A stretch of 64,000 nucleotides of DNA from Mobula hypostoma (Eukaryota). Every line of letters starts with the position of its first letter. Positions within the stretch are counted from its first letter, which is position 1. Shown one piece after another: positions 11,144-51,508 of the stretch. The DNA is taken from NCBI RefSeq assembly GCF_963921235.1, contig NC_086097.1:85066001-85130000 (forward strand), read 5' to 3'. Below the pieces are notes generated by a model. That model ran no database searches, was not told the origin of the DNA, and saw only the letters and a list, made by a program, of their open reading frames with translations. The translations under genes and the position numbers were made by a program.

Positions 11144-11434
11144 TTAATGGCACTTGTGGGAATATTCTAGAGATACAGGTAGAGAAAAGTGGTCAGAGTA
11201 ATATAATTGTAGTACAGAAAGCCAGAATAGAATTAATGAGCTGAACATTTTTTTTCTGTGTGGCAGTATTCTGCAGCCCTCTGAATCCGATGTTCTTGGC
11301 AAGTTTGATGGGACAATTATCTCCTTTGTAATGCTGGTGGCATTACCACAGGGTATGGATAGGGTCACATCAGAAAATGGAACCACTACAGTTAAATTTC
11401 TCCTCACTTCCTCCCTTATCAATTCATATTTTCT
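11144..11434 (-). CDS. Putative terminal coding exon of Ig-like membrane/GPI glycoprotein gene (RKYELIREEV...YSHKCH*)
   Basis: Strong acceptor ttttaccttccttttcaacag|AGA; 291 nt = 96 codons + TAA, phase 0; two N-glyc sequons (NLT, NAT); hydrophobic MFSSLILFWLSVLQLYY near the end; non-repetitive sequence. Confidence 0.65.
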   Translation of the reverse strand, partial: RKYELIREEVRRNLTVVVPFSDVTLSIPCGNATSITKEIIVPSNLPRTSDSEGCRILPHRKKMFSSLILFWLSVLQLYYSDHFSLPVSLEYSHKCH

Positions 11435-11844
11435 CTGTTGAAAAGGAAGGTAAAATATGTAATCATATCACAATTTATAAAAATGATGAGAAGCAAATGA
11501 AATTATCATTATAAACCTCAAACTTTGTTCCCATCTCTGATCCCACTGGTAATTTTGCATGCAACAGACTTTAAATGCAGGAGGAACTCAGTAGGCCAGG
11601 CAGTGTCTATGTAAAAGAGTTGACATTTCGGGCCAAGACCCTGCACCAGGCCTGCCTTTTTGCATAAATGGTTAAGAGTGCTATAATGGATTTATGGGGT
11701 ATGCCCACAATAAAATGTATCTCAGGGTTGAGTATGGTGACATATATGTATTTGATAAGAAATTTACTTTTTACTTTGAACCGAGGATATTATGCACTTC
11801 TGAAAAAGTTTACCTTTTCCCAGAGTGTTTTGATCTCCCATTTG

Positions 11845-12527
11845 GGAGAGTAACTTGCAGAGCTTGCAGTGGCCATTCCGGTGGTGATGTCTGTTATTTA
11901 TCAAGTAGGGTGCCGTGCGCAATCCTGATTTGATGGAGACGGACGTGAGAGCATGGAGGAACATCTAGTGAAACTTCTGGAATGCCTGCTTTGCTGCTGT
12001 TGCTACTGTGTGGTCCAGAATCTCCAGAGGAGAAGGCCCCGAGTCCTCGGCTTTGCTTGTTGCTCAGTGGCCGGGGGGTGTGGGGGTGCGGGGTCAAAGC
12101 GCTTGGCAGAGGATGGTGCTCAGAGAGGCTGTGTCGGAGGGGCTGGTCGGAGGCTCGAAGTTGTCGGACAGACTCAGAGTCCGCTGCGGTGGGGTTCTTC
12201 CAATGGTGCTGCATCAGCAAGTTGGCGGCGTTTGGAGGTTCATGGCAGGGAGAGTTTCTCCGTTCTGCCGCCTGCGTGAGATGATGAGTCTGTCGGGACT
12301 TTGAGACTTTTTTTTACCGTGCCCATGGTCTGCTCTTTATCAAATTATGGTATTGCTTTGCACTGTTGTAACTATATGTTATAATTATGTGGTTTTGTCA
12401 GTTTTAGTCTTGGTTTGTCCTGTGTTTTTCTTGTGATATCATTCTGGAGGAGCGCTGTATCATTTTTTAATGCATGCATTTCTAAATGACAATAAACGAG
12501 GACTGAGTGTCCTCATAATCTAATCTA
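11845..12527 (+). mobile_element. ~650 bp non-autonomous retroposon family, copy 1
   Basis: Homologous to 50876-51508 (+) and 57040-57685 (-); ends aatgacAATAAA...(taatc)n. Confidence 0.8.
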
Positions 12528-12758
12528 ACTCTGGTGGATTTAATCCTCCAGAGCTGTGAGATAGTTCTTAAAGTACTGTCCAATGCTTTGGAATAATGTT
12601 CTAGTCATATTTTTAAACTCACTTGAGTTCCTTTAAAACCAAATATCATTGTGTGGTCTGGTCTTTTTACAAATACTATGCCTCCAGTTAAAATTGGGAT
12701 AATTTTGATGCAGTCTTTTGGAATTCAATTGGAATTTTAACTGAAGTTATACAAAATA

Positions 12759-13239
12759 GTAAACAACAGGAATTCTGCAGATGCTGGAAATTCAAGCAAC
12801 ACACATAAAAGTTGCTGGTGAACGCAGCAGGCCAGGCAGCATCACTAGGAAGAGGTGCAGTCGACGTTTCAGGCCGAGACCCTTCGTCAGGACTAACTGA
12901 AGGAAGAGTGAGTAAGGGATTTGAAAGTGGGAGGGGGAGGGGGAGATCCAAAATGATAGGAGAAGACAGGAGGGGGAGGGATGGAGCCAAGAGATGGACA
13001 GGTGATAGGCAAAAGGGGATACGAGAGGATCATGGGACAGGAGGTCCGGGAAGAAAGACAAGGAGGGGGGGGTGACCCAGAGGATGGGCAAGGGGTATAT
13101 TCAGAGGGACAGAGGAAGAAAAAGGAGAGTGAGAGAAAGAATGTGTGTATAAAAATAAGTAACAGATGGGGTATGAGGGGGAGGTGGGGCATTAGCGGAA
13201 GTTAGAGAAGTCAATGTTCATGCCATCAGGTTGGAGGCT
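12759..13239 (-). mobile_element. Young Penelope-like terminal repeat (solo), same subfamily as 22571-24111
   Basis: Near-identical to the reverse complement of 28410-28890 and 23670-24110. Confidence 0.9.
12859..12894 (-). ncRNA. minimal type I hammerhead ribozyme motif
   Basis: Minus strand reads AGTC-CTGACGA-AGGgtctcggCCT-GAAA-C-GTC-GACT; intact core, GUC cleavage triplet. Confidence 0.75.
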
Positions 13240-14698
13240 GGCCGCCCTGACTTCCCTCCCGAAATCTCAATGACACTCTCCCCCCTGCCCACACCTTCTG
13301 GAAGATGCCTTCTTAAAGTCTACTCCTTTAACCAAACTTCATAAGCACAAAGTATTTCCTTATATGCTGCAAATGTGGCAAATTTTGTTTGATAATACTG
13401 TTGGGAAGTATATTGCCTGTTACTTGTATCTCATTGCGAGCTGCATGTATTATTTAATTGTGAATATCTCCTCCTGTTGTCTTTTAAGTTTCTGTAACCT
13501 GAAGTTTAAGTTGGATGAGCAACATGCTGTTGCAAGTTTTGTAGCTGCTCAGGGTATTCGATGGCAAACAGCAGTGCTCAGCGGTGTAGCGACTGGTTGG
13601 AGCAGGTTACAGTTAGTCTATACCAGTCATAATCTGTGGTACAAGTTTATTGTGGACGATGCAGCAATAGGGTCACATTGTAGACCCAAAAACGCACTGT
13701 GTCTTCAGGACATGTTCCCATCAAAGATTAAATTCGAAGGGCGGAGAGGTGCATTGGATAGATTAACACTCACATAAGGCATCAATAACCAATTGCTTTA
13801 CGCCATTAAAGTTCTTTCAGCCGCTTAGATATATTCGGCTGTAAAGGTTTTTCCCGTTGCACCAACAATGTCTGCTTAGATGGTTGCCTTGTCTGGCAGC
13901 CAGCTCATGTAAATATTCAGAGAGAAAAGACCAACAGGAGCCCATGGATAGCTGGTTGGAATATAAACAGGGGATGTAAGAAGGATATCAGGGCTTGCAG
14001 TTACAAATTGTCGAGAAAGGGGAAAAATTCCACAAAAATTAGTTGGCTATCACAGGTGCATGGCATTTATATCACATTGAAGTAAGACTGAATGAAGGAA
14101 ATGGGATTTGTTTTGACTGATCCTCTTTGTGTTCACTTGCTGTTGACTGAATAAGGAAGCTCAACGACGCATGTTGTTCTCTACCTCACTAAAGTGTTAC
14201 TTCGTTCCTCTCTCTGAAAGACTGAGGAAATCCTGCACAAACTCATGGTCAAAAGGCACATATCAGGGTTCCCTGTGAGTTTCTACTCTTACACTCCTGA
14301 GTCATGCCGTAAAACAGTATGAAATTCGCACAAGTGACCCAGTCCGAAGTTTAAGTTACTCGGATCTGTTAATGGAGTGCTGGCTGCAGTGTGGGTGGGC
14401 AGTGTGAGAGAAGCTCAGCTAGGGAGTGAATAGACTCACAAATTTTCCCTGAAGCAGTGTCCTGAGAGGAAATCAAATCAATTAGCAAGGTACAAGAATT
14501 GATGAGAATAGCTGGAAGTGACTATTTCAGGGCAAACTAAAGCTAACCAAATGTGAGAAACAAACTTCATAATGTCAGTGGTGTGTTGAATAAGTAGTAC
14601 TGAGATTGAGCAAGTTGTCATTTCTATCTGTGTAGATGCCGACCCCAGGCTTATGAATGCGGCCTAGGTCCAGGCCTCGGACAATTTTATTTTAATTA

Positions 14699-16258
14699 CA
14701 GGTGTCCCCCGCTTTTCGAACGTTCGCTTTACGAAACTTCACTGTTACGAAAGACCTACATTAGTACCCTATTTTCGCTTTCAGAAGGTGTTTTCACTGT
14801 TACGAAAAAAAAATTCAGCGCGCGATAAAAGGCAGCGCACCCCGAGCAGCCGCTCTCCCCCAGATTCTTGCTGGCATTGCTTAAACACGAGCCTGTGAGC
14901 AGCCGTTTGCAAGATGAGTTTTATGGTATCAGAAAAGCCTGAAAGAGCTCATAAGGGTGTTACATTTAAGGTAAAACGAAACATAATTAAGCGTTTTGAT
15001 CATGGTGAACGAAGTAAGGACAACGTGAGTTTGGCTTGTGGAAGTTGACGAAGATGATGTTGAAGAGGTTTTGGCATCCCATCACCAAGAACTGACAGAT
15101 GAAGAGCTGATGCAATTGTAAGAAAAAAGGATAACAATCGAAACTGAATGAGTAATGATAAAGTACAACTTTAGTTTTGAAGGGGTACGTCGGTTTAGGG
15201 GATATTTGCAGGATGGTTTGAGTCCTTACAAAGAACTGTGTGATAGAAAAATGCGCGAGGCTCAGCAGTCAAGCAAGCCTTCCACATCAGCCACAGCAGA
15301 CGACGAACCTCGACCTTTGACATCGAGGCGGGAAGAGATAGAAGAAGATAAGCTGCCTGCTCTAATGGAAACAGACGACGAGATGACACCCCAGTGTCCC
15401 ACCACCCCAACCCCCAGGCCACGGACAGATACCGATTCGCAGAGAATGCAAAGGTAGCCGGGAGGCACACAGCACATCTTTAAGAAAAAAGCCGAAATAA
15501 ACATGCTAATTAATTAGGTGCCGCCGACACGTAGTTGTCAGCCCAGATCAGAGACGACGCAATCAGAAATCGGCACTGATCTGGGCCGACAATTACAGGC
15601 GGCACCTAATTAATCAGCATGTTTGTTTTGGCTTTTTTCTTAAAGATGTGCTGTGTACCTCCCGGCTACCACTGGACCCCTGCGTTCTTCGCGGCAATGT
15701 ATTGCTCAGCGGCTTGGAGGGTGAGGGGCCACTGCACCACCCAAACTCCGACGACTCAGTCTAACACACCATCATCAGTGTGCTCTGCGCTGTCCCGATT
15801 CCGGTAAGTGATACTACACTGTACATACATTATTTCTACTTTATATTGGCTGTGTATTTTTACGTGTTATTTGGTATGATTTGGCAGCTTCATAGCTTAA
15901 AGGTTACTGGAGAGCGCTTGCGCGTGTTTTTGCTAACAGCGCTTGTGTGAGATTTTCTGCCGACGGCGCTTGCATGAGATTTTCGCTCCGGAGAACAGTT
16001 CAGTAATGATTGTGGAAAAGTATTTCTACTTCTTATAGGCTGTGTATTTATCATACCATTCCTGCTTTTACTATATGTTACTGTTATTTTAGGTTTTATG
16101 TGTTATTTGGCATGATTTGGTAGGTTATTTTTGGGTCTGCGAACACTCACAAAATTTTCCCATATAAGCAAATGGTAATTGCTTCTTCGCTTTATGACAT
16201 TTCGGCTTATGAACCGTTTTATAGGAACGCTCTACCTGCGGATGGCGGGGGAAACCTG
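14699..16258 (+). mobile_element. Internally deleted Tigger/pogo DNA transposon
   Basis: TA|CAGGTGTCCCCCGC ... GCGGGGGAAACCTG|TC TIRs; remnant N-terminal CENP-B-type HTH (KGVTFKVKRNIIKRFDHGE) joined directly to the acidic C-terminus (EVDEDDVEEVLASHHQELTDEELMQL); no DDE core seen. Confidence 0.85.
15453..15670. repeat. Long imperfect inverted repeat (hairpin) inside the Tigger element
   Basis: ggtagccgggaggcacacagcacatctttaagaaaaaagcc... pairs with ...ggcttttttcttaaagatgtgctgtgtacctcccggctacc; arms ~95 bp. Confidence 0.9.
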
Positions 16259-16259
16259 T

Positions 16260-16475
16260 CTTGACCTACAGCACAAGAAGGCCCTTCCAGCCCTTCAAGC
16301 CGCACTGCCCAGAAGTCTCCCAATTTAATCTTAGCCTAATTACGGGACAATTTACAATGACTAACTAACTTAGCAACTGGTATGTCCTTGGAGCATGGGC
16401 GGAAACCAGAGCACCCTGGAGGAAACACATGCAGTCACGGGGAGAACATAGAAACTCCTAACAGACAGTGGTAGG
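16260..16475 (-). mobile_element. SINE (V-SINE/HE1-like)
   Basis: Same core as 1760-2020. Confidence 0.65.
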
Positions 16476-16789
16476 AAAAGTTATGTAAAGAAAAAGAGCA
16501 ACTAAAATGTTTCCTTGGAGACTTCAGAGTTGATGATATGGAGCAGGAGAGACCATTGCTGGAGTTGCGGTGGAGAGGTAAGAATGAACCTAATCAAGAA
16601 CAGTCCCCAAAGGTGAATAAGGTTGCATAGTCACCAGACGGCTACAACACTGGAGATGAGAGGAACAACGTACCATGGTCACATGGAGGTTGCAGATGGG
16701 AAAACAGTTCCCCAGGACAGGATAGTCGATAGTGTTTTTCCTCTGGGAGCTGTGAAGCATAGCTTTATCACTGGCTGAGGTTCAGGTAG

Positions 16790-17715
16790 AATGCATAAGA
16801 CCATAAGACATGGGAGCAGCATCAGGCCATCATGTCTACTCCACCATTCAATCATGGCTGATCCTTTTACCTCTCTCCAGCTCCACTCCCCAGCCCTTCC
16901 CATGACCTGTGATGTGGTGTCCAGTAAAGAATTTATCACTCTACGGCCTGGTCTCCACAGCTGCCTGTGGTAATAAATTCCACAAATTCACCACCCTCTG
17001 GCTAAAGATATTTCTCTGCATCTCTGTTTTAAATGGACGCCTCTCTATCCTGAGGCTATGCCCTCTGGTCCTAGACTTCCCCACCATGGGAAACATTCTT
17101 TCCACATCTACACTGTCTAGACTTTCAACATTTGAAAGGTTTCAATAAGATCTCCCCTCATCCTTCCAAATTCCAGAGAGTACAGACCCAGAGCTATCAA
17201 AAGTTCCGTGTATGATAACCCTTTCATTCCCGCAATCATCCTTGTGAACCTACTCTGAACCCTCTCCAATACCAGCACATCTTTTCTTAGATGAGGTGCC
17301 CAAAACCATTCACAATACTCAAGGCAAGGCCTTACTAGTGCCTTATAAAGCCTCAGCATCACATCTGTGCTCTTGTATTCTAGACCTCTTGAAATGAATG
17401 CTAACATTGCATTTGCTTTCCTCACCACAGACTCTACCTGCAATTTTAATCTTGAGGGAATCCTGCACAAAGACCCCTAGTCCCTTTGCATCTCAGATTT
17501 TTGGGATTTTCTCCCTGTTTAGAAAATAGTCTGCACATTTATTTCTTCTACCAAAGTGCATGACCATGCATTTTCCAGCATTGTATTTCATTTGGCACTC
17601 TCTTGCCCATTCTCCTAATCTGTCTAAGTCCTTCTGCAGTCTACCTGTTTCCTCAACACTACCTGCCCCTCCACCAGTCTTCATATCATCTGAAAATATG
17701 GCAACAAAGCCATCT
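16790..17715 (-). mobile_element. CR1 LINE 3' fragment
   Basis: ORFs 17493..17750 (FSDDMK...LQKDLDRLGEWA...CMVMHFG) and 17117..17470 (KANAMLAFISRGLEYK...MRGDLIETF) are the CR1 RT C-terminus; cataagaccataaga tail. Confidence 0.9.
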
Positions 17716-18054
17716 AACATGGTCAAGGAAACATACTGTAAAGACATCAAATTCAGACATCGGGAAACCTAGGATGCTTTTGAGGTGGAGGTATTATTTG
17801 GCTTAGAAACCAAATAATTCCTCCTCAGAGCTGGATCATAGGAAAGATGTTACTGAGTGAGACTTGAAGGCAGAGCAGACAATGAGGAAGTTAAAGACAA
17901 GACATCCAGGTGATGCCACTGAAAGAAAAGAAATTAAGGGACAAATTATGCCTCAGCTGATAACTGTCACCTGAGTGAACAGTGACCCAGGGAGGGTAAA
18001 CTATTATTTATTCTCATTGTACGATGTTGCTTCTGTCTGGATTTTACTCTAGAT

Positions 18055-18134
18055 CAGGGGTGCTCAATTTAGGGTCCATGGACCCCTTGTTTAATGATAT
18101 TGGTCTGTGGCATAAAAAGGGTTGGGAGACCCTG
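18055..18134. mobile_element. Small hAT/Charlie-like MITE
   Basis: CAGGGGTGCTCAA ... TTGGGAGACCCTG imperfect TIRs; flanks CTCTAGAT / ATGCAGAT resemble a decayed 8 bp NTCTAGAN TSD. Confidence 0.55.
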
Positions 18135-18623
18135 ATGCAGATGAACTTCAATAATTTGTCACTAGGAAGAAAGCCACTAAACTAAAATTCTTTGGTCCCA
18201 GACTGCTCATATCAAAGAGGCATGACAAGGAGAACCCATGCCGGCTTTGACTGAGATCTTCAGGGGTTCTTCTTCGAGTGCACACAGCTTCAAGAGGCTG
18301 TGTGTAACATATCTGACAAGTACCACTCTGCATGAGCATTCAAGCACATCTCAAGCACTAGAACTTGTCTTTGTGATCTCCTGGTACAGTTGAGAGAGAG
18401 GATTGAGTTGATGGTAAGTGAAGACCAGGTATAAGAAGGAGAATAAAATATTGTGGAGGAGATGGGCGGGGTGGGTGGGAATAACAGGGCGCCCAGGGAG
18501 GAGATCAGATGAGGGATGAGTAACAATACTTGGAGAGGACGGGGGGATAAGAAAGAGGTCATAGAGAGGGAGGGAGTATGTAAAAGATTGCTGGGATGAA
18601 CAGGAAGAGATCTAACAACATAC

Positions 18624-18773
18624 CTCATCGATTTTGCCTTCATTGAACATTAATAAACAAGAAACGGCATTACACGCTACTTTTTGACGGTAAAATTTGG
18701 GCACATTGATATTGCCACTAACAGCATATGCTGCCTTGAAACCCATTTGTTTTGTTAGTATTCCGTGTATATT
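18624..18773 (-). CDS. Putative internal coding exon (NIHGILTKQMGF...NEGKIDE) of Ig-like glycoprotein gene
   Basis: ttcccttccccatcacag|AAT...GAG|gtatgt; exactly 150 nt, open, phase 0-0, compatible with both neighbours. Confidence 0.7.
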
Positions 18774-19267
18774 CTGTGATGGGGAAGGGAAGACTGGAAC
18801 CAAGCATCTGTGATTCTTAGGTACTGGAGATTGATGAGAACAGATATTAGATGGATAGGCCTGTGCAAAAACTGGCCTTAGAGGTTAGTTTATATGTTAA
18901 GATAGAGCCTAGCATTTATACAGCAATTCAGGCTGATTGCAAGGATTTTTTTTTTTTTGGTGCTTGTGGTAATTGTTAGGTCTACATGCCAGGAAGTTGA
19001 TATTGATTAAGCTGGAACTGAAGTTACACAGAATGTGTTTAGACCTACCCTTTTGCCAGCTCGGGTGGAAAAATGCCAGTCATTTGGCAAGGGGACAGTG
19101 GCAGGATATCTGTGTGATTGAGACGGTAACTGTTCAGGCGTGGGGAGGTGGTGCTGATGTGGGGGGATATCTTTGTCCAGGTGTTGATTCCTTCCGGCAC
19201 GCCGCGGGATGGGTTCCGCAGTACGCTGCTTTCAAAGCTTGGCTCATCACTAATGGAGATCGTTTAC

Positions 19268-19338
19268 ATTCTGCACAGTACGGTGGCCTTTGGCACACAG
19301 CAAGCCTATAGTGGATAGGTTTCTCTTACAGCCAATCG
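19268..19338 (-). CDS. Putative internal coding exon ((A)IGCKRNLSTIGLLCAKGHRTVQN)
   Basis: tttcctttttctag|CG...AAT|gtaaac; 71 nt, phase 1-0, bridging the signal-peptide exon and the 150 nt exon; the donor is only moderate. Confidence 0.55.
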
Positions 19339-19594
19339 CTAGAAAAAGGAAATACTGTAGATTCAGTTAGGTCTAGGTGGCACTATGGAGTGAGATATTC
19401 TTACACACAATTTATTTTTCCTTCATCTTTCTAACAATACCTTTCTATTGCTGGCAGAGGTGGTCAAAATCAAGGTAGAATTCACAAAATAAAATGCCTT
19501 AAGAAACTAATTTCAAAAATAAAATGCTGTCTGAGCTTCCCTGACATAATCTTCACAACCAGAACTTCACTTGAAGAAAACTGTCTTTGTCGGT

Positions 19595-20500
19595 TGCAAC
19601 ACACACAGAACACTGGAGAAACTCAGCAAGTCGGGCAGTATGTGTGGAGGAGAATAAACAGTGCTTGTTTCGGGCCGGGAGCCTTCATCAGGACTGGAAA
19701 GGAAGGAGTTAGGAGACAGAGCAAGAGGGTGGAGGGTGGAGGGGGAGGATTACATGCTATCATGTAATAGGTGACACCAGGTGAGAGGGAAAGTGAGTGC
19801 GTGGGGAAAGGGGGGGGGATGAAGTAAGAAGCTGGGAAGGGAGGGGATAGGTGGAAGAAGTAAAAGACTGAAGAGGAAGGAATCTAATAAGAAAGGACAG
19901 TGGACCATGGAAGGAAGGGAAGGAGGAGGGGCACCAGAGAGAGGTGATGGGCAGGTGAGGAGAAGAGATGAGAAGGGAACAAGAATGACTAAAGGAAAAA
20001 GAGAGAAAGCGGAGTAAGAGAAGAAAACGCCAGAAGTTGGAGAAATCGATGTTCGTGCCATCAGGTTGGAGGCTACCCAGGCAGAATGATTTTTTGCTCT
20101 GCCAGTCAGAGTTTGGCCTCATCAGGGCAGCACAGTAGTATAGCAGCTGGCGTAACACTTCTAGGTGCCAGCGATGGTGGTTCAGTTCCTGCCACCGTCT
20201 GTAAAGAGTTTGTATGTTCCTCCTGTGATCGCATGGGTTTCCTCCCATATTCCAAAGGTGTACAGTTAGTAAGGGTCAGTAAGTTGTGGGCAAACTGTGC
20301 TGGTGCCGGAAGCATGTTCTGGGACTGTGTCGGTCACGACGCATTTCACTGTCCTCTACGCTTCGATATAAATGTGAAAAATAAAGCTGTTTTCTCTGAA
20401 CTCATGGTGGTAGAGCAGGCTCTGGACAGGCATGTCAGAACGGGTATGGAGTCGAATTGAAATGGGTGGCCACCGGAAGATTTTGCCTGTGGCGGTGGAC
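19595..20500 (-). mobile_element. Older Penelope-like 3' fragment interrupted by a SINE
   Basis: LGSLQPDGTNIDFSNF in ORF 19760..20248; PLE sequence resumes after 20400 (ATH-FNS-like region). Confidence 0.8.
20133..20395 (+). mobile_element. SINE (V-SINE/HE1-like) nested in a PLE fragment
   Basis: tRNA-like head (ggttcagttcc B-box-like), gagtttgtatgttc...gggtttcctcc core, AATAAA near the tail; ctcat repeated at both junctions. Confidence 0.65.
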
Positions 20501-20798
20501 AGAGTGGTCAACCGCCTTTGTCGGTTGGCCTGAAACTCGAAGTGTGACTCTTTTCGATCGTGGGTATTTGCAGTTTGTCGCTGAGCAGCTGTCAATCAGA
20601 TTTTTTTTGTCTGATGGTCTATGTTTGTTCAGTGATAGTACTGGCTGGGTATTTCCACCCCTGCGTTTGCAAACCTTATGATTATTCTCTCCATTAACAT
20701 AACTGAGCTAACACTTCGGCCTGACAATTGTGTAAACAGAAAATGCCAACCTTCCAATCCTACAGGGGTATTAAATATTCCACAGCTTGGATCCTTGC

Positions 20799-20847
20799 CT
20801 GGATCGTATACTATCAGAAATATCCAGATGGTGAAAAATATCCACAT
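20799..20847 (-). CDS. Putative first coding exon, signal peptide MWIFFTIWIFLIVYDP (exon starts at acceptor 20872; alternative GT donor extends it to 20751)
   Basis: Acceptor gttattttctttccag at 20873, ATG at 20847, hydrophobic N-terminus; both candidate donors (CAG|gcaagg at 20799, AAG|gttggc at 20751) are phase 1, matching the next exon. Confidence 0.55.
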
Positions 20848-21824
20848 ATGCAAAGTACATCAAGTGATTTAACTGGAAAGAAAATAACACATCTCCAACA
20901 GTGGAATAAACAAAACCTTGTGAATTGGTTAATTAAAGCAATAAACAAAAGTTATTACTGATGCAAAATACACTGAATAACTTAGAAAACTGTGCTAGTA
21001 ATCAAGCAGCATGTGCCTCACAATCAGCCAGAGGTTTTAAAGGGTATTTAAGTTATTTTCCCACTAAATAATTGGATAAGCAGTCAACAAGCTCTATTGT
21101 CCTGGAAAGAGAGGTTATGAGATTGTTAATTCAGAGAAATTAAATGAACAGTGGTTAATAACATTGCAATATACATTATCCTCCTTGCACGACTATTAAG
21201 AATATTAATATTCAGAAATTGTATCAAATAAAGAAACACATCTAGAAATGTGGTGACACTGCAATCAAACAAAAACTTACAGATGCTGGAAATCTGAAAT
21301 AATAACAGAAATTGCTGGAAATACTCAGCCAGTTAGGCAGCATTTGTGTAGAGAAAAGCAGAGTTAACGTTTTAAGTTGAAGATCCTTCTTTAGAATTGA
21401 GAAAGGTCCGACCTGAAATGTAAATATTTTTCTTTTTCTACCCCTATTGCCTGAGCCACTGAATGTTTGCAGTATTTTCTGTTGCTTAAAACATATTAGC
21501 ATTATCAGGATAAAGGCAGACCCAAGCTGTGCTAACTGTGACCAACAGCACCAGATACAAAAACTGTTCTTCACCCTATCCTCCAAGCGTGGCAGTCTAA
21601 TGCGGAGCTGCCACAAGTCTGTGGCACACTGATGCACAGAAGCTGCCAGACTTCACACGTTTGGGGACTCCACCTGTGTTGGTGTTTCTCAGCATTACGT
21701 GGGTTCCTCTGGGTGCTCTGGTTTCCTTCCACGAGTTTAATTTGTCACATGGGTGGAGCAGGCTCATTGGGCCAGAAGGGCCTGTTACCAAGGTGGATTT
21801 CTAAATAAAATAAAAAAAAGAGTT

Positions 21825-22450: not shown

Positions 22451-22594
22451 CCCAAGATACCTTTTAAATCTTTCACCCCTCATCTTAAACCTATGACGTC
22501 TAGTTCTCTTTCCTGGGAAATAGAATGTGTGTATTCAGCCTATCCAAACCCCTCATGATTTTCTCATGATTATGCCTGCCTTTTTGTTGGGTTT

Positions 22595-23719
22595 GTGGAA
22601 CAATCTATGTTCCGTGCCTATTCTGGTATCTGTCCCCCACTTTTCCTTCGCTACATCGACGACTGCATTGGCGCTGCTTCCTGCACGCATGCAGAACTCG
22701 TTGACTTTATTAACTTTGCCTCCAACTTTCACCCTGCCCTCAAGTTTACCTGGTCCATTTCCGACACCTCCCTCCCCTTTCTAGATCTTTCTGTCTCTGT
22801 CTCTGGAGACAGCTTATCCACTGATGTCTACTATAAGCCTACTGACTCTCACAGCTATCTGGACTATTCCTCTTCTCACCCTGTCTCTTGCAAAAACGCC
22901 ATCCCCTTCTCGCAATTCCTCCGTCTCCGCCGCATCTGCTCTCAGGATGAGGCTTTTCATTCTAGGACGAGGAAGATGTCTTCCTTTTTTAAAGAAAGGG
23001 GCTTCCCTTCCTCCACTATCAACTCTGCTCTTAAACGCATCTCCCCCATTTCACGTACATCTGCTCTCACTCCATCCTCCCGCCACCCCACTAGGAATAG
23101 GGTTCCCCTGGTCCTCACCTACCACCCCACCAGCCTCCAGGTCCAACATATTATTCTCCGTAACTTCCGCCACCTCCAACGGGATCCCACCACTAAGCAC
23201 ATCTTTCCCTCCCCCACTCTCTCTGCATTCCGCAGGGATCGCTCCCTACACAACTCCCTTGTCCATTCGTCCCCCCCATCCCTCCCCACTGATCTCCCTC
23301 CTGGCACTTATCCGTGTAAGCAGAACAAGTGCTACACATGCCCTTACACTTCCTCCCTTACCACCATTCAGGGCCCCAAACAGTCCTTCCAGGTGAGGCA
23401 TCACTTCACCTGTGAGTCGACTGGGGTGATATACTGCATCCGGTGCTCCCGATGTGGCCTTTTATATATTGGTGAGACCCGACGCAGTCTGGGAGACCGC
23501 TTTGCTGAACATCTACGCTCTGTCCACCAGAGAAAGCAGGATCTCCCAGTGGCCACACATTTTAATTCCACATCCCATTCCCATTCTGACATGTCTATCC
23601 ACGGCCTCCTCTACTGTAAAGATGAAGCCACACTCAGGTTGGAGGAACAACACCTTATATTCCGTCTGGGTAGCCTCCAACCTGATGGCATGAACATCGA
23701 CTTCTCTAACTTCCGCTAA
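22595..23719 (+). CDS. Penelope-like RT C-half + GIY-YIG endonuclease ORF (5'-truncated, uninterrupted 374 aa)
   Basis: RYIDD catalytic motif, LPFLDL, YYKPTDSHSYL, C/H-rich linker, GVIYCIRC..C.LLYIGET (GIY-YIG), R..EH, EQHLIFRLGSLQPDGMN. Confidence 0.9.
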   Translation: MEQSMFRAYSGICPPLFLRYIDDCIGAASCTHAELVDFINFASNFHPALKFTWSISDTSLPFLDLSVSVSGDSLSTDVYYKPTDSHSYLDYSSSHPVSCKNAIPFSQFLRLRRICSQDEAFHSRTRKMSSFFKERGFPSSTINSALKRISPISRTSALTPSSRHPTRNRVPLVLTYHPTSLQVQHIILRNFRHLQRDPTTKHIFPSPTLSAFRRDRSLHNSLVHSSPPSLPTDLPPGTYPCKQNKCYTCPYTSSLTTIQGPKQSFQVRHHFTCESTGVIYCIRCSRCGLLYIGETRRSLGDRFAEHLRSVHQRKQDLPVATHFNSTSHSHSDMSIHGLLYCKDEATLRLEEQHLIFRLGSLQPDGMNIDFSNFR

Positions 23720-26606: not shown

Positions 26607-28893
26607 GCAACACACATCAAAGTTGCTGGTGAACGCAGCAGGCCAGGCAGCATCTCTAGGAAGAGGTACAGTCGACATTTCAGGCCGAGACCCTTCGGCA
26701 GGACTAACTGAAGGAAGAGTTAGTAAGAGATTTGAAAGTTGGAGGGGGAGGGGGAGATCCAAAATGATAGGAGAAGACAGGAGGGGGAGGGATGGAGCCA
26801 AGAGCTGGACAGGTGATTGGCAAAAGGGATACGAGTGGATCATGGGACAGGAGGTCCGGGAAGAAAGACAAGAGGGGGGAACCCAGAGGATGGGCAAGGG
26901 GTATATTCAGAGGGACAGAGGGAGAAAAAGGAGAGTGAGAGAAAGAATGTGTATATAAAAATAAAAAACAGATGGGGTACGAGGGGGAGGTGGGGCATTA
27001 GCGGAAGTTAGAGAAGTCGATGTTCATGCCATCAGGTTGGAGGCTACCCAGACGGAATATAAGGTGTTGTTCCTCCAACCTGAGTGTGGCTTCATCTTTA
27101 CAGTAGAGGAGGCCGTGGATAGACATGTTAGAATGGGAATGGGATGTGGAATTAAAATGTGTGGCCACTGGGAGATCCTGCTTTCTCTGGCGGACAGAGC
27201 GTAGGTGTTCAGCAAAGCCGTCTCCAAGTCTGCGTCGGGTCTCGCCAATATATAAAAGGCCACATTGGGAGCACCAGACGCAGTATATCACCCCAGCCGA
27301 CTCACAGGTGAAGTGTCGCCTCAGCTGGAAGGACTGTCTGGGGCCCTGAATGGTGGTAAGGGAGGAAGTGTAAGGGCATGTGTAGCACTTGTTCCGCTTA
27401 CAAGGATAAGTGCCAGGAGGGAGATTGGTGGGGAGTGATGGGGGGGGGGACGAATGGACAAGGGAGTCGCGTAAGGAGCGATCCCTGCGGAAAGCGGGGG
27501 GGGGAGGGAAAGATGTGCTTAGTGGTGGGATCCCGTTGGAGGTGGCGGAAGTTACGGAGAATAATATGTTGGACCCGGAGGCTGGTGGGGTGGTAAGTGA
27601 GGACCAGGGGAACCCTATTCCTAGTGGAGTGGCGGGAGGATGGAGTGAGAGCTGATGTACGTGAAATGGGGGAGATGCGTTTAAGAGCAGAGTTGATAGT
27701 GGAAGAAGGGAAGCCTCTTTCTTTAAAAAAGGAGGACATCTCCCTCGTCCTAGAATGAAAAGCCTCATCCTGAGAGCAGATGCGGCAGAGACGGAGGAAT
27801 TGCGAGAAGGGGATGGCGTTTTTGCAAGAGACAGGGTGAGAAGAGGAATAGTCCAGGTAGCTGTGAGAGTCAGTAGGCTTATAGTAGACATCAGTAGATA
27901 AGCTGTCTCCAGAGATGGAGACAGAAAGATCTAGAAAGGGGAGGGAGGTGTCGGAAATGGACCAGGTAAACTTGAGGGCAGGGTGAAAGTTGGAGGCAAA
28001 GTTAATAAAGTCAACGAGCTCAGCATGCGTGCAGGAAGCAGCGCCAATGCAGTCGTCGATGTAGCGAAGGAAAAGTGGGGGACAGATACCAGAATAGGTA
28101 CGGAACATAGATTGTTCCACAAACCCAACAAAAAGGCAGGCATAGCTAGGACCCATACGGGTGCCCATAGCTACACCTTTAATTTGGAGGAAGTGGGAGG
28201 AGCCAAAGGAGAAATTATTAAGAGTAAGGACTAATTCCGCTAGACGGAGCAGAGTGGTGGTAGAGGGGAACTGATTAGGTCTGGAATCCAAAAAGAAGCG
28301 TACAGCTTCTTTTCCCATTCCCATTCTGACATGTCTATCCACAGCCTCCTCTACTGTAAAGATGAAGCCACACTCAGGTTGGAGGAACAACACCTTATAT
28401 TCCGTCTGGGTAGCCTCCAACCTGATGGCATGAACATCGACTTCTCTAACTTCCGCTAAGGCCCCACCTCCCCCTCGTACCCCATCTGTTACTTATTTTT
28501 ATACACACATTCTTTCTCTCACTCTCCTTTTTCTCCCTCTGTCCCTCTGAATATACCCCTTGCCCATCCTCTGGGTCCCCCCCCCCTTGTCTTTCTTCCC
28601 GGACCTCCTGTCCCATGATCCTCTCGTATCCCTTTTGTGAATCACTTGTCCAGCTCTTGGCTCTATCCCTCCCCCTCCTGTCTTCTCCTATCATTTTGGA
28701 TCTCCCCCTCCCCCTCCAACTTTCAAATCTCTTACTAACTCTTCCTTCAGTTAGTCCTGACGAAGGGTCTCGACCTGAAACGTCGACTGTACCTCTTCCT
28801 AGAGATGCTGCCTGGCCTGCTGCATTCACCAGCAACTTTGATGTGTGTTGCTTGAATTTCCAGCATCTGCAGAATTCCTGTTGTTTGCATTGT
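26607..28893 (-). mobile_element. Young Penelope-like element with inverted 5' segment
   Basis: Minus-strand body 26607-~28308 (GVAMGTRMGPSYA, RYIDD, GIY-YIG; one frameshift at the G-run ~27496-27504) fused to a plus-strand copy of the 3' end ~28312-28890; flanked by CCCCAAGGATTAAT (26593-26606) / CCCTAAGGATTAAT (28894-28907). Confidence 0.95.
28753..28788 (+). ncRNA. minimal type I hammerhead ribozyme motif
   Basis: AGTC-CTGACGA-AGGgtctcgaCCT-GAAA-C-GTC-GACT; intact core. Confidence 0.75.
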
Positions 28894-30663: not shown

Positions 30664-32379
30664 CAGGAAGGATCTATTTCCCTTAGGAGTGTGGTTGTTA
30701 ACTAGTTTGCATAGATGTCAGTTAATTGGTAAAAAAGATTGGAGGAGGTTTGAAAAAAAAACAATGATTTAATTCAATAAGTGGTAGGTGTCTGCCTGAA
30801 AAACTGTTGGAAGGAGAAATCCTCACCTCATGTGAAGAACTCGAATTGCCAGAACCTGTAGGGTCGTGGATTCAAGTCAGTAGGCCAAGTTAACCCAATG
30901 TTTATTTTTGGCTAGCTTGGATATGAAGGGCAGAATGGCCTCCCTTAATGTTTTAAACTTCTCTGCTTTCTACATTTATGTAGGCACCATCTATGCTTAT
31001 TGTTAACCTATCTACAATGAAAATAAGCCACTTCTGTTCCTGGATTATGGTTTGTAGCTTTCTCAGATCATTATCATGACACTCCCCGACACTTCTGAGT
31101 CCAAAAGACATTGTCTTTTGTTGCATGATACTGTTCACATTTGGTATCTTCTCACTCTCTAATTTCCAAGCACATGATAAAAGTTGGCAATGAACAATAG
31201 GGAACAAATTCTGCTCCACCATTCCATCATGGCTGATTTTATTATCCCTCTCAACCTCACGGGAAAAAAAATGCTAAAGCCGGGAGTTAATGGAAAGGGT
31301 GAAAAGTGAAACTGCCAACCAATGGGTTTAAGGGAGATGTAATCAAGATATGATAATGGTGTTAAGGTACACATCGACCACCGATGTGTTTAAACACAGG
31401 GTTGATGGTCTGAATGGCCCAGTCCTGTTCCTGTGTTTGTAAGAGACAAAGGAATGTCAGGAAGTAAGATGATATGAAAGGGCAGTAATGAAATGCCACC
31501 GTTGATACTGTTCTGGCTATTAGGTGTTGGCGGAGCTGCTGGTACTAGCTGAGGAGATCCCCTGAGCGTCATGTGCATCTATTAATAGTGACAGGGGATT
31601 AAGGAGATGCTTGATAACATGTTGCAGCTGAAAGGAAAACTCCCAGTGGAATATTGCAATTTGGTAGAATGAGTTCTGCACAGGCAACCACTGCTCTTTC
31701 CTTAAGTGCACCGTGCTTTTATAGGCTGGTCTTATTTAACTACTTTTATACCAAGTATTGAATCCAGACTGTGGTGTCAAAGAGACAACAATTTCAGTCT
31801 CTTGGATTAACTACTTACTATAAACTTAACCATTTCCTCACCAGCTCTCACAATGCTCGGTTGAATTTTTGGTATCATGGGAGTACAAGGGACGGTTCAT
31901 ATTGCATGTGGAGGATATCGAGCTCAGTGGGAGCAGCCATCAAGAGAAATCTGCCTACATGCACATCAAACACATTCATGACTTGGAACAGGTTTCTTCA
32001 ATAGCTTCACCCATGCTGGCAGCTCCCAGTCTCCATCATGTTGTGCTGAAGGATGTTATGTTTGTCTAGCTGCAGCAGCCAGAGGAGGCGGCAGCTTCTC
32101 TGCAGGTTATTTTTCAGTCGAGAGCTTGCTCGTTCAGTTTTATTTTCTGTACGTATAAAAAGGAAGCAGGTTGTTTTTTTTTCTGTAGGAATGAAAAGGA
32201 AGCAGGCTGTAGTGGAGACCATTTTGGATTGACCATTTTTGGGAGTGGCCCTGTTTGAGCTTTAAGTGCCGTGGTTCAGAATGAGTGCTGAGGTTTTGGT
32301 TCAGGAGGCTGCAGAGAGAGGGGCTGAGTAAGTAGGTGCAGGTGAGGTTTTCCTTACTGTTACTGCTCCTATTTGCAAG

Positions 32380-33450
32380 CTCAGACTATCTAAGAATGAC
32401 TTTGAATTCAATGATTAATTTTACCTATAAGTCAGAGGCATGACGATGAGAAAGGAATTTGCCCCAGCCTATGCTAACACATACATGGCAAAGTGGGAAG
32501 AGACAGCGTTCCCTAAGTGCCCCAGGAAACCTATGTGGCTCTCTACAAGTACCTGGATTACATCTGGGGGGTGTGGACGCACTCTGAGATAGACTCTAAA
32601 TTCTGAATCCTCATCACCTCGCCATAGAAGTTAAGGCCACAACAAGAAGGGAGAAAATTGTATTGAAATTAGCACCAGAAAATGGGAGTCAGAAGCTAAA
32701 GTGTTTTTCAAAACTATAGACACTCAGGGAGGAGGACTGCAAACAGGCCATTACAATCCTCTTCAATGCACTTAGACGGAGAGGCTACAACAGATGGAAG
32801 TTCAGGCCCATCAAATCAGACTTCTTGAAAGGCCTCACAAATCCCATACCACAGACCAGGGCAGCACCTAGGTTACAGTTGATAACGGGATACAGTGGGA
32901 TGGCAGTCAGTATCCGTGCAGAAATCAAAACCTGCTTTGAGCAATTTACTGAGGTAGACTCACTGAGTCAGTACATTATAGTGTCAGCTTTTAAGAGTGA
33001 AAAACTTGAGAGGCATACTAGGCAGTACCAAATTAAAAATAGCCCCAAACTGTTGGGGGTGGTGGTGGTGGTGGTGGAAGAAAGAGTAGGGCATGTGAAT
33101 GCTTAAGAGTGTCAAAAACCATACACAACATTGGTACTGGTATGTGGGCCCAGTTAAAGCAGAGGATAACTTGTGAATATCAGAGCTTAGTGTACACAAT
33201 TCAGTGCAAACAATGCCATAATTACTTTAAATAGGGGAGACAGATGACAGCTTTAGACTCAGGCTCACAGGTCACCTTAGTAACACTACAAGAGAAGACC
33301 AGAATATTTCCAGCAGCATGGGATCCAAACTTTGGAGATCGTTGGCCTGGAAACGAATGTGAACTGATCAAACCTTCAAAGAAAAAGAGCAGAGAGGAAA
33401 TGGATTGAAACATTACAAACCTCTTCCCAACTAAGCCTAATAACTAGGTC
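32380..33450 (+). mobile_element. Decayed Penelope-like element of a second, divergent family
   Basis: Broken frames read NDFEFN..FYL.VRG..M..EFAPAYAN.YMAKWEE, YLDYIWGVW, FFKT.DT and ERKWIETLQT, i.e. PLE RT and GIY-YIG motifs unlike the young family. Confidence 0.7.
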
Positions 33451-34835: not shown

Positions 34836-35509
34836 ATTCAATTCAATTCAAGTTTAATTGTCGTTCAACCATACAGGGATCCTCACAAATACAGCTGAAC
34901 AAAACAGCTTTACTCTGGGGTCAAGATGCAAAACACAGTACCCACAGTCATACACAGCACAAAGCACGCACAAGATAGCAAGCACAAGTGGTATCGCAAC
35001 CACACAATAAGAGAGACCCAAAAACTCACACCATCAATCCACAGTTGCCCCCAGTAGAGCCCCACTGGGGGTGGCAGCACCGACTCCAGGGTAGAGTGAT
35101 GGGTGCCCGGAATGAACAGAGGTGGTGATGGAGAAAAATATGTTAGTGGTGTTCAAGAGGCTCTTACATGAACATGGAGGAAATGGAAAGATATGCGCAT
35201 TGTGTGGATAGAAGGGCATTTGATTATTAATTTAATTAGCTTGGCACTACATCATGGGGTGAAGGGGTTATTCCTGCGCTGTACTTTGTCCTTTGTGCTT
35301 TGTTCCATGGGAGTGAAAGATTTACAAGACCTTGTGGATTTTACCGAGCTTGGAATGCATGACTTGTTTGAAATCCATGACCTAGGAGTTGGCATTGGCT
35401 GAGTCAGGATATGAGCTAGCACATGATTAGTGAACACATAACCCAACGAGTTTACCATCAAATTGATACATAGTACTGAGTCATTTATTCCATAGACAGC
35501 CAGTCAGCC

Positions 35510-38500
35510 CGGGGAAGTACAGGGGCATAACTGCACAAGCGCATGGAGATCGGCCAGTGAGAACAGCGAGAAGAGTTTAAAAAGAAGACGGATTTATACA
35601 GCGGGCGTCAGAGTAGAGGGAGACAGAGTAGGAAGGCTTTGGCTGGACGGGGCTTCAGCGATAAAGGGTCAAGGCGAGGCAGGTTATCAGTGTAGAATAC
35701 AGACAGAAAGTATGTGTGTGAGGCTGGTTTTCTGTGCTCGGTGTCAGATGTGGGAGGTCCTGGAGACTCCCAGCCTCCTGGACGACCACATCTGCACCAG
35801 GTGTGTCGAGCTGCAGCTCCTTAGGGACCACGTTAGGGAACTGGAGATGCAGCTTGATGACCTTCGTCTGGTCAGGCAGAGTGAGGAGGTGATAAAGAGG
35901 AGCTATGCGCAGGTCGTCATTCCAGGGCCTGGGGAGACAGGGAAGTGGGTAACAGTCAGGAGAGGGAAGGGCAGCAGTCAGAGGCTAGAGAGTACCCCAG
36001 TGGCTGCCCCTTAACAATAAGTACCCCTGTTTGAGTACTGTTTGGGGGGGGGGGCGTGGATGGCCTACCTGGGGGAAGCAACAGTGGTTGCACCTCTAGC
36101 ACAGAGTCTGGCCCTGTGGCTTAAAAGGGTGGGGAAAGGAAGAGGACAGCAGCAGTGATAGGGGACTCTATAGTTTGGGGGGTCAGACAGTCAATTCTGT
36201 GGATGCAGGAAAGAAACGCAGATGGTAGTTTGCCTCTCAGGTGCCAGGGTCTGAGGTGTTTCCGATCGCGTCCATGATATCTTGAAGTAGGAAGGAAAAC
36301 AACCAGAGGTCGCGGTACATATTGGTACCAACGACATAGGCAGGAAAAGGGAGGAGGTCCTGAAAACAGACTACAGGGAGTTAGGAAGTTGAGAAGCAGG
36401 ACCTCAAAGGTAGTAATCTCGGGATTACTGCCAGTGCCATGTGACAGTGATTATAGGAATATAATGAGGTGGAGGATAAATGCGTGGCTGAGGGATCGGA
36501 GCAGGGGGCAGGTATTCAGATTTCTGGATCATTGGTACCTCTTTTGGGGCAGTTGTGACCTGTACAAAAAGGACAGGTTGCACTTGAATCCCAGGGGGAC
36601 CAATATCCTGGCAGGGAGGTTTGCTAAGGCTATTGGGGAAAGTTTAAACTAGGATTGTTGGGGGGTGGGAACCGAACTGAAGTGACGGAGGAAAGGCAGG
36701 TTGGCTCACAACTAGAGAAAGCTTGGAGACAGTGCGAAAGGGAGGATAGGCAGGCAATAGAGAAGGGATGTGCTCAGTCTGATGGTTTGAGATGTGTCTA
36801 TTTTAATGTGAGGAGTATTATGAACAAAGCGGATGAGCTTAGAGCATGGATCAGTACTTGGGACTATGATGTTGTGGCCATTACAGAGACTTGGATAGTG
36901 CAGGGGCAGGAATGACTACTTCAAGTGCCATGCTTTAGATATTAAAGAAAGGACAGGGAGGGAGGCAAAAGAGGTGGGGGCGTGGCACTGTTGATCAGAG
37001 ATAGTGTCATGGCTGCAGAAAAGGGAGAGGTCATGGAGGTGTTGTCTACGGAGTCCCTGTGGGTGGAAGTTAGGAATAGGAAGGTGTTAATAACTCTACT
37101 GAGTGTTTTTTATAGACCACCCAATAGTAACAGGGACATCGAGGAGCAGATAGGGAAACAGATTCTGCAAAGGTGTAATAACAACAGGGTTGTTGTGGTG
37201 AGAGATTTTAATTTCCCATATATTGATTGGTATCTCCCTAGACTGAGGGGTTTAGATGGGGTGGAGTTTGCTAGGTGTGTTCAGGAAGGTTTTTTGACGC
37301 AATATGTAGATAAACCTACAAGAGGAGAGGCTGTACTTGATCAGGTATTGGGAAATGATTGTGGTCAGGTGTCAGGTCTCTCATTGGGAGAGCATTTTGG
37401 AGATAGTGATCACAATTCTATCTCCTTTACCATGGCATTGGAGAGGGATTGGAACAGGCAAGTTAGGGAAACATTTAATTGAAATAATGGGAAATATGAG
37501 GCTATCAGGTAGGAACTTGGAAGCATAAATTGGAAACAGATGTTCTCAGGGAAATGTACAAAAGAAATGTGGCAAATGCTCAGGGAATACTTATGTGGGG
37601 TTCTGCATAGGTACGTTCCAATGAGACAGGGAAAGGATGATAGGGTACAGAAACTGTGGCGCACAAAGGCTGTTGTAAATCTAGTCAAGAAGCAAAAGAG
37701 CTTACGAAAGGTTCAAAAAACTAGGTAATGATAGAGATCCAGAAGATTATAAGGCAAGCAGAAAGGAGCTTAAGAATGAAATTAGGAGAGCCAGAAGGGG
37801 CCATGAGAAGGCCTTGGCGGACAGGATTAAGGAAAACCCCAAGGCATTCTGCAATATCTGAAGAGCAAGAGGATAAGATGTGAGAGAATAGGACCAACCA
37901 AGTGTTACAGAGGAGAAGTGTGTATGGAACCGGAGGAGATAGCAGACGTACTTAATGAATACTTTGCTTCAGTATTCACTATGGAAAAGGATTTTAGAGA
38001 TTGTAGGAATGACTTGCAGCAGACTTGCTTGAGCATGCAGATATTAAGGAAGAGGATGTGCTGGAGCTTTTGGAAAGCATCAAGTTGGATAAGTCAGCGG
38101 AACCGAACGGGATGAATCCCAAGCTACTGTGGTTAGCAAGGGAGGAGATTGCTGAGCCTCTGGCAATGATCTTTGCATCATCAATGAGGACGGGAGAGGT
38201 TCCGGAGGATTGGAGGGTTGCGGATGTTGTTCCCTTATTCAAGAAAGGGAGTAGAGATAGCCCAGGAAATTATAGACCAGTGAGTCTTACTTCAGGGAGG
38301 ATCCTGAGAAGCAGGATCACAGAAGCACTGTGAGGGTCATGTTTTTTGACTTCTCCAGTGTGTTCAATACCATCCGCCCTGCTCTGCTGGGGGAGAAGCT
38401 GACAGCGATGCAGGTGGATGCTTTCCTGGTGTCATGGATTCTTGATTACCTGACTGGCAGACCACGGTACGTGTGCTTGCAACACTGTGTATCCGACAGA

Positions 38501-50875: not shown

Positions 50876-51508
50876 AAGATAGTGGCGCGACGCAGCGCGC
50901 GCAGCCGTTCCGAATGATATCGTATGTGTTAACTAGGGGGCCGTGCACAATCCTGATTTGATGGCGACAGCCGTGAGAAGCACGGAGGAACACCTGGAGA
51001 AACTTCTGAAATGCCTGTTTCGCTGCTGCTGCTACTATGCGATCGAGAATCTCCGGAGGGGAGGGCCCCAAATCCTCGGCTTTGCCTATTGCCTGTTGCC
51101 GGGAACGGGGTCGAATCACTTGGCAGAGATGGTGCTCAGTGTCGGAGAGCTGGTTGGAGGCTCAGAGTTTTCGGACGGACTCGGAGTCGGACTGTGGTCG
51201 AATGCTTCCAGGATGCTGCATCGGCAAGTTTACGGCGCTGGAGGTTCACCGTCTACGTGAGATGATGGGACTTTCGAGAGACTTTGAGACTTTTTACCGT
51301 GCCATGGTCTGTTCTTTATCAAATTACGGTATTGCTTTGCACTGTTGTAACTATATGTTATAATTATGTGGTTTTTGTCAGTTTTTCAGTCGGTTTGTCA
51401 TGTGTCTGTGATATTATTCTGGTGAAACATTGTATCATTTCTTAATGCATGCATTACTAAATGACAATAAAAGAGGACTGCATGTCCTCATTATCTAATC
51501 TAATCTAA
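50876..51508 (+). mobile_element. ~650 bp non-autonomous retroposon family, copy 2
   Basis: CpG-rich head gaagatagtggcgcgacgcagcgcgc, tail aatgacAATAAA...(atcta)n; homologous to 11845-12527 and 57040-57685. Confidence 0.8.

Follow-up and report, generated by a model that had tools for sequence, protein, structure and literature searches.

A candidate four-exon gene for a small Ig V-like surface glycoprotein in Mobula hypostoma

The window of the Mobula hypostoma genome analyzed here (64,000 nucleotides) is large, repeat-rich and gene-poor, and raises the question of whether four segments of its minus strand, initially annotated as a hidden gene for a Thy-1/CD2-like Ig-domain surface glycoprotein, are genuine exons and, if so, what kind of protein they specify. 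Our preferred reading, to which we assign a probability of about 0.4, is that they are the exons of an unannotated, fast-evolving gene for a small, GPI-tethered glycoprotein of the Ig V type; that real exons of some kind are present at the locus is probable. The locus should at present be regarded as a candidate gene only. If the reading is true, a rapidly evolving cell-surface protein has escaped annotation in a lineage that is pivotal for understanding how adaptive immunity arose, and small genes with GC-AG introns are overlooked among ray repeats.

Gene model and splice sites

The four segments, with lengths of 49, 71, 150 and 291 nt (Table 1), join in frame into 561 nt, i.e. 186 residues and a stop codon, with intron phases 1, 0 and 0, which reproduces the reading frame of the initial annotation. 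None of them overlaps a repeat in a self-BLAST of the window, a masking that catches only repeats recurring within it, and all four acceptors fall within the top 0.3-1.3% of 9121 AG sites.

Table 1. Features of the candidate locus, in positions of the window.
Feature	Positions	Strand	Remarks
Putative 5' UTR part of first coding exon	20848..20872	-	own acceptor at 20872, top 1.1% of AG sites
Candidate coding exon 1	20799..20847	-	49 nt, phase 1; signal-peptide-like; GC donor end
Alternative exon 1 extension	20751..20798	-	to a GT donor 48 bases further; extended exon 1 has 97 nt coding, phase 1
Candidate exon 2	19268..19338	-	71 nt, phase 1 to 0; Cys20, Cys31, sequon N23; acceptor top 1.3%
Candidate exon 3	18624..18773	-	150 nt, phase 0 to 0; Cys74, Cys79; best-supported exon
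Candidate terminal exon 4	11144..11434	-	96 codons and stop; N103, N121, Cys119, Ser/Thr/Pro stalk, hydrophobic tail; acceptor top 0.3%
Hydrophobic segment, residues 153-167	11204..11248	-	after basic cluster; GPI-signal-like or short membrane helix

The acceptor ahead of coding exon 1 implies a further non-coding exon upstream, which was not found; an acceptor this good lies within 100 nt upstream of 114 of the 1740 non-repeat ATGs (6.6%). The start ATG has a weak context (C at -3, T at +4) and is preceded, 13 nt upstream within the putative UTR, by an out-of-frame ATG. Splicing of the first intron would use either a GC donor, a rare type whose context here is among the top 3 of 5716 GC sites, or the GT donor further on (rank 753 of 6906), up to which the frame stays open, giving a 202-aa form with one more cysteine; the chain scores are 26.6 for the 186-aa form and 26.3 for the 202-aa form. 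Exon 2 has a single open frame and a weak donor (rank 1009 of 6906 GT sites). The GC donor, this weak donor, the ATG context and the upstream out-of-frame ATG went unmentioned in the initial annotation. Exon 3 ranks second of 80 internal exon candidates and first among those outside repeats, has a coding log-odds of +8.8 bits, and contains 5 CpG; among 351 overlapping windows with similar GC content outside repeats, 10 have at least that many. The stop-free run of exon 4 ranks second among 18 strong non-repeat acceptors, and its coding log-odds is merely +2.7 bits.

Exon 4 also bears on a quite improbable alternative, namely that the exons are real but belong to another transcript: a longer gene that leaves exon 4 early and goes on elsewhere, a decaying copy or a THY1 orthologue that has diverged greatly. 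With the phase-1 donor located after base 11347 (score 0.98, top 8%), the domain would end at a phase-1 intron, as is usual for Ig exons; however, the frame remains open for 67 codons beyond it, hydrophobic tail included, and the only strong in-phase acceptor noted downstream, at 10483, lies in what by eye we take to be antisense LINE-like sequence. Overall size, signal length and tail resemble those of Thy-1. The ORFs scanned in the window include no neighboring gene for a synteny comparison. THY1 is conserved from fish to mammals (PMC6497726), making an orthologue that lacks the core cysteine and goes unseen in protein databases unlikely.

Chance expectation, surroundings and homologues

Splice strength alone is ordinary, given that 71 of 400 simulated windows reach the chain's splice score, as do 24 of 40 in an unmasked comparison. 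Once a coding score is added, the score of the 186-aa form (37.1) is reached in 9 of 400 simulated windows and that of the 202-aa form (39.4) in 5 of 400. If a crude V-set motif is also demanded (aliphatic-x-aliphatic-x-Cys, then D-x-x-x-Y 50-72 residues later, a pattern chosen post hoc), any such chain occurs in 8 of 400 simulated windows, and the splice score is reached in 0 of 400. The gene model is plausible and beats a simple null, though the chain exceeds chance only moderately. The sequence itself establishes the in-frame join, the splice-site quality, the hydrophobic ends, the three sequons and the places of the cysteines, whereas splicing and the Ig fold are predictions.

The view that there is no gene at all, but a chance chain of non-coding segments with good cryptic splice sites and a Thy-1 likeness seen after the fact, is in our view somewhat doubtful. 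In 356 of 400 simulated windows at least one four-exon chain arises that starts signal-like and ends in a hydrophobic tail, chains through repeats outscore the candidate when the real window is left unmasked, and other strong acceptors precede 100 and 90 open codons. Moreover, hundreds of windows of the same genome were surveyed, so that an event of 2% frequency should turn up several times. Against this, both strands together hold 7 signal-plus-tail chains outside repeats, of which this one scores best; it lies beyond the 95th percentile of the null, the motif-bearing null never attains its score, and it has further features in its favor, namely the GC donor context, the upstream acceptor and a cleavage site that spans a junction.

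Homologues, whose absence would fit a chance chain, were not found in word-index protein searches with the translations of exons 3 and 4. Single-exon searches gave no Ig match: Pfam, queried with 6 single-exon pieces, returned 0 families at E 10, partial sequences of a divided domain being weak queries, the PDB sequence search was blank at E 10, and an Atlas search yielded no usable match (recognition scores 1267 and 1571, most known families reaching 2300). Metagenome contigs had 0 of 308 and 0 of 460 stretches confirmed. A phmmer search of exon 3 against 1.84 billion proteins gave one match (E 7e-4, 24% identity) to a repetitive, unrelated-looking protein of 2010 aa, which was rejected as chance-like. 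By tblastn, a stretch at 31179-31102 resembles exon 3 (42% over 26 aa, E 0.02); it was likewise taken as chance because it contains two stops.

As to the surroundings, no Pfam family reached its curated cut-off among 113 non-repeat minus-strand ORFs below 27 kb, or among 291 of the 377 remaining non-repeat ORFs of at least 42 aa, the other 86 lying in the repeat-rich 35.6-48.2 kb part; hence a neighboring host gene was not found among the scanned ORFs. Rfam gave 0 matches over 6400-64000. The nearest poly(A) signals are unremarkable (ATTAAA at 10350, AATAAA at 9612), and the three CpG-rich stretches of the window (12001, 15251 and 57251) do not include one just upstream of exon 1. No sequencing run on record as RNA is listed for the stretch 18400-20900; in three runs guessed to be RNA, its share is 0.06 in one and 0.00 in two, which is no evidence either way since this stretch mixes candidate exons with repeat pieces.

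Predicted protein and fold

It is possible, and we tentatively hold, that the real exons encode an Ig V-like surface glycoprotein of the GPI type. The N-terminus is hydrophobic (KD11 2.98), which fits the signal peptide proposed initially, and the tail is moderately hydrophobic (KD15 1.89 from residue 153; KD19 just 1.13). The protein would enter the ER and lose a 19-residue signal peptide, a cleavage site with small residues at -3/-1 lying at residue 19 across the exon 1/2 junction. Sequons are present at residues 23, 103 and 121, as first reported, and cysteines at 20, 31, 74, 79, 119, 144 and 185 (186-aa form). Near residues 139-141 lies a small-residue site where GPI might replace the tail; a basic spacer and then the 15-residue hydrophobic segment come after it. 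The protein would then probably be tethered to the outer membrane face. Beyond the tail there are about 18 mostly polar residues, an end that exceeds the usual GPI signal length, and cleavage near residue 140 would leave the 186-aa form with five cysteines, an odd number.

The fold that we favor is a single Ig V-type domain that dispenses with the canonical B-F disulfide. Of the V-set core, the candidate has Cys31, Asp89 and Tyr93 at plausible distances, the D-x-x-x-Y motif being completed only across the exon 3/4 junction, while the tryptophan and the F-strand cysteine are absent: no Trp occurs between residues 9 and 160, so that the C-strand Trp is lacking, and, as the initial annotation had it, the F-strand position is replaced, with Leu95 two after Tyr93 and no Cys between 79 and 119. 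Both residues are likewise missing from some true V domains. Cys20-Cys119 would link both ends of the domain, much as a cysteine pair ties the two ends of the Thy-1 domain, and the extra pair noted earlier in exon 3, Cys74-Cys79, would close a hairpin. The periodicity of hydrophobic residues is mixed: moments of the beta type reach 0.5-0.7 at residues 56, 68, 84, 96 and 112, in favor of the Ig fold, and those of the helical type 0.5-0.6 at residues 32-46 and 92-106, against it.

An unlikely alternative is a real membrane-tethered secretory protein with a helical or other non-Ig fold, for instance a cytokine- or neuritin-like bundle acting as a tethered ligand. Many helical cytokines have a signal exon that ends in phase 1 and phase-0 introns after it, whereas the usual Ig exon has phases 1-1; residues 80-102 have a higher propensity for helix than for strand, and the missing core Trp and F-strand Cys would suit such a fold. 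AlphaFold, run on exon 3 alone as a single sequence, gives two helices (helix-loop-helix; low confidence, pLDDT 63) in the sole model that covers the domain core. The fragment model with exon 4 (pLDDT 49), likewise built without alignment, begins that exon with a short helix and has another from about residue 156 to about residue 172, as numbered in the 186-aa form (pLDDT about 70-77). However, single-sequence models of fragments tend toward helices, Foldseek found 0 matches to the exon 3 model at E 0.001, no neuritin or cytokine Pfam family matched any single exon, and strand propensity dominates most windows of residues 20-82 and 100-130.

Comparison with known systems

Thy-1 is a small protein with an N-terminal signal, N-glycans, a GPI tail, a V-like domain and no cytoplasmic domain, whose intradomain disulfide uses an F-strand cysteine (Cys104 in human; PMC6497726). 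The candidate would share its small size, signal, two or three N-glycans, GPI-type tail, single predicted V-like domain and want of a cytoplasmic domain, but has Leu95 in place of that cysteine. It differs further in the additional Cys74-Cys79 pair, in a Ser/Thr/Pro stalk that Thy-1 lacks, and in a predicted domain divided among three exons by phase-0 introns, where THY1 has a single V exon. By eye, there may be a likeness in two early cysteines 10-11 residues apart, in short motifs common to both in the C to D strand region, and in a G-strand sequon followed by a cysteine; the original Thy-1/CD2-like assignment draws on such motifs, and the single-exon searches and fragment models neither support nor refute it. 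Mammalian Thy-1 carries RLD integrin-binding and REKRK-type heparin-binding motifs (PMC8851320). Neither motif, as defined on mammalian Thy-1, occurs in the exon translations, and no search run with single exons returned a Thy-1 sequence. Membership in Thy-1 in the strict sense therefore fails, there being no F-strand cysteine and no RLD. Having no cytoplasmic tail, the protein would act through partners in Thy-1 fashion, as an adhesion or recognition ligand that signals via partner membrane proteins in lipid rafts, with a partner not bound via RLD.

A narrower reading, which we consider fairly unlikely, is that of a cartilaginous-fish Thy-1 paralogue: a single GPI-anchored V domain in which the B-F disulfide and the core tryptophan were lost and other cysteine pairs hold the fold, and which, with three domain exons, phase-0 introns and a GC-AG first intron, has escaped annotation. 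Neither such a paralogue nor such a gene in cartilaginous fish was found in the portions searched of a mostly open-access literature. Thy-1 is not known to have a close paralogue, so that a relative whose disulfides are rearranged and whose domain is split would inform the evolution of primordial single-V adhesion molecules.

Neuritin (NRN1) and membrane-tethered helical cytokines are small, cysteine-linked, tethered secretory proteins with a phase-1 signal exon; the candidate is likewise small, cysteine-bearing and predicted to be tethered, with a phase-1 signal exon, though its cysteine number and spacing do not match. In CD2/SLAM proteins (CD2, CD48, CD58) and CEACAM N domains, a V-type domain without the canonical disulfide has an aliphatic residue two after the F-strand tyrosine, and both properties are predicted for the candidate. 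In these families a single exon encodes the V domain, a C2 domain usually comes next, and there is a C-strand Trp but no B-strand Cys; the candidate, by contrast, would have a single domain divided among exons, with a B-strand-like Cys31 and without the Trp. No C2-type exon occurs among the scanned ORFs, and exon 4 comprises a stalk and a hydrophobic tail in place of a C2 domain. CEACAMs include GPI-anchored members, diverge rapidly and have an 'N domain exon' (PMC2832619). If the paralogue reading were true, the candidate would form a bridge between Thy-1 and the disulfide-free V domains of the CD2/CEACAM type.

Candidate gene and its splice sites

The most likely reading of the putative four-exon minus-strand gene, to which we assign a probability of about 0.4, is that it would encode a GPI-tethered glycoprotein with a single V-like domain. 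This product could serve as an adhesion or recognition ligand working via partner membrane proteins, as do Thy-1 and other GPI-anchored IgSF molecules (PMC6497726, PMC5715320). The four segments joined in the initial annotation are all present and join into 186 codons plus a stop (see table); its sequon and cysteine positions are likewise correct, and the product contains two further cysteines, Cys144 and Cys185. The donor of the first intron is a GC, with a context within the best 3 of 5716 GC sites, while an alternative GT donor at 20751 yields a 202-aa form with one extra cysteine and an equal chain score. Exon 1 has a dedicated acceptor at 20872, implying that a non-coding exon lies upstream of it; a comparable acceptor is seen at 114 of 1740 non-repeat ATGs. 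The weak context of the start ATG and the presence of an out-of-frame ATG 13 nt before it both count against this start. That the segments belong to some other or longer transcript, a diverged THY1 included, appears very unlikely.

When splice sites were scored with frequency tables, the four acceptors ranked 103, 114, 25 and 27 among 9121 AG sites, and the donors of exons 3 and 2 ranked 46 and 1009, respectively, among 6906 GT sites. Exon 3 is second of the 80 internal exon candidates above thresholds and the top one outside repeats; exon 2 falls below these thresholds. Exon 4 stays open for 96 codons, which places it second among 18 strong non-repeat acceptors and is not exceptional.

Candidate exons and other elements in the window
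Feature	Position	Strand	Remarks
Exon 1	20847-20799	-	49 nt
Exon 2	19338-19268	-	71 nt
Exon 3	18773-18624	-	150 nt
Exon 4	11434-11144	-	291 nt
Penelope-type retroelement, 3' part	22559-23719	+	Young, near-intact; GIY-YIG Pfam match
Penelope-type retroelement, 3' part	26998-28492	-	Young, near-intact; opposite orientation
Exon 3 look-alike	31102-31179	-	Weak (42% over 26 aa, E 0.02); two stops, judged chance
128-codon frame	32720-33106	+	Outside self-repeats
LINE	35496-40498	+	Decayed; ORF1 piece resembling an esterase (Lipase_GDSL_2, E 3e-4), plus endonuclease and RT
Second RT element	38276-39205		Apparently inserted in the LINE
Tc1/mariner-type transposase	47434-48427	+	Broken; HTH_Tnp_Tc3_2 and DDE_3 matches, sub-cut-off
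Exon-like cluster	53633-53865	+	Good scores (53719-53785, 53812-53865); non-repeat
GC-rich short repeat family	11900-12300, 15250-15750, 50820-51360, 57250-57630		Several copies, partly CpG-rich; long open frames on both strands

Genomic setting and chance expectation

The window is gene-poor (43.6% GC, without N), with within-window repeats comprising 27% of it. Its Pfam matches (GIY-YIG, RVT_1, endonuclease and Tc1-type transposase pieces) represent Penelope-type, LINE and DNA-transposon debris. A number of the window's strongest cryptic splice sites come from the pyrimidine-rich tail of the Penelope-type element. A Pfam scan of 404 non-repeat ORFs recognized no host gene; thus, synteny support is absent. 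Pfam also gave no match for the 128-codon frame, which on visual inspection looks like the closing part of a further retroelement ORF, or for the exon-like cluster, possibly a non-coding or unrelated exon.

Word-index searches of a 5.8-billion-protein set recovered no relative of exon 3 (protein lengths 89-2000) or exon 4 (52-2000), and Pfam, PDB, the ESM Atlas and metagenome contigs held no match for the candidate exons. An exhaustive phmmer search with exon 3 returned a single match, judged chance-like. Outside support was found in none of the protein, family, structure and metagenome searches, and a literature search found nothing on such a gene.

Four-exon chains that begin signal-like and end in a hydrophobic tail were then enumerated. 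Without repeat masking (introns up to 10 kb), repeat-crossing chains outscore the candidate; once repeats are masked and the span is set to 12 kb, it ranks first of seven. Among 400 locally simulated windows, 356 contained some qualifying chain, 71 reached its splice score of 26.6 and 9 its combined splice and coding score of 37.1. A crude V-set motif chain occurred in 8, none of them at the 26.6 splice score, a figure that overstates the case since the motif was picked post hoc and other family patterns could also have been accepted. The chain is thus moderately unusual against chance, though not decisively so, given that hundreds of windows of this genome were examined; a chance assembly with no underlying gene is a considerable possibility.

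Predicted protein features

The stretch from residue 3 to 13 is hydrophobic, and joining exons 1 and 2 completes a -3/-1 small-residue site at residue 19. An aliphatic-x-aliphatic-x pattern directly precedes Cys31; Asp89 and Tyr93, spanning the exon 3/4 junction, follow it by 58-62 residues, the F-strand motif position of a V domain. The putative V-like region lacks Trp. In the C-terminal tail, small residues occupy 139-143, followed by a basic spacer, a hydrophobic run of 15 residues and roughly 18 predominantly polar residues. This arrangement appears GPI-like but imperfect; a typical transmembrane helix is unlikely, as hydropathy (KD) over 19 residues is too low (1.13).

A genuine gene with a helical fold would better fit the intron phases 1, 0, 0, which are more typical of helical cytokines than of Ig exons. 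Periodicity is mixed, being strand-like at residues 56, 68, 84, 96 and 112 and helix-like at 32-46 and 92-106. Alignment-free AlphaFold modelling predicted two helices from exon 3 alone (pLDDT 63) and, fairly confidently, only the hydrophobic-tail helix for exon 4 alone; Foldseek found no match at E 0.001 with the exon 3 model. These fragment models carry little weight, yet do not favor an Ig fold. We regard the helical alternative as unlikely.

Comparison with known systems

As the initial annotation had noted, the F-strand cysteine is replaced, with Leu95 occupying the expected disulfide position. A cysteine-free F strand is common to the V-like domain proposed here and the N domains of CD2 and CEACAM. 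However, these families usually combine a C2 domain with a single V exon (the N domain exon of PMC2832619), and the candidate has neither. With Thy-1 it would share a predicted way of working but not membership in the strict sense, since it lacks the F-strand cysteine and the RLD and REKRK motifs described for Thy-1 in PMC6497726 and PMC8851320, respectively; that it is a Thy-1 paralogue seems rather unlikely. If real and Ig-like, it would represent a variant, itself undescribed, of an already known type of molecule.
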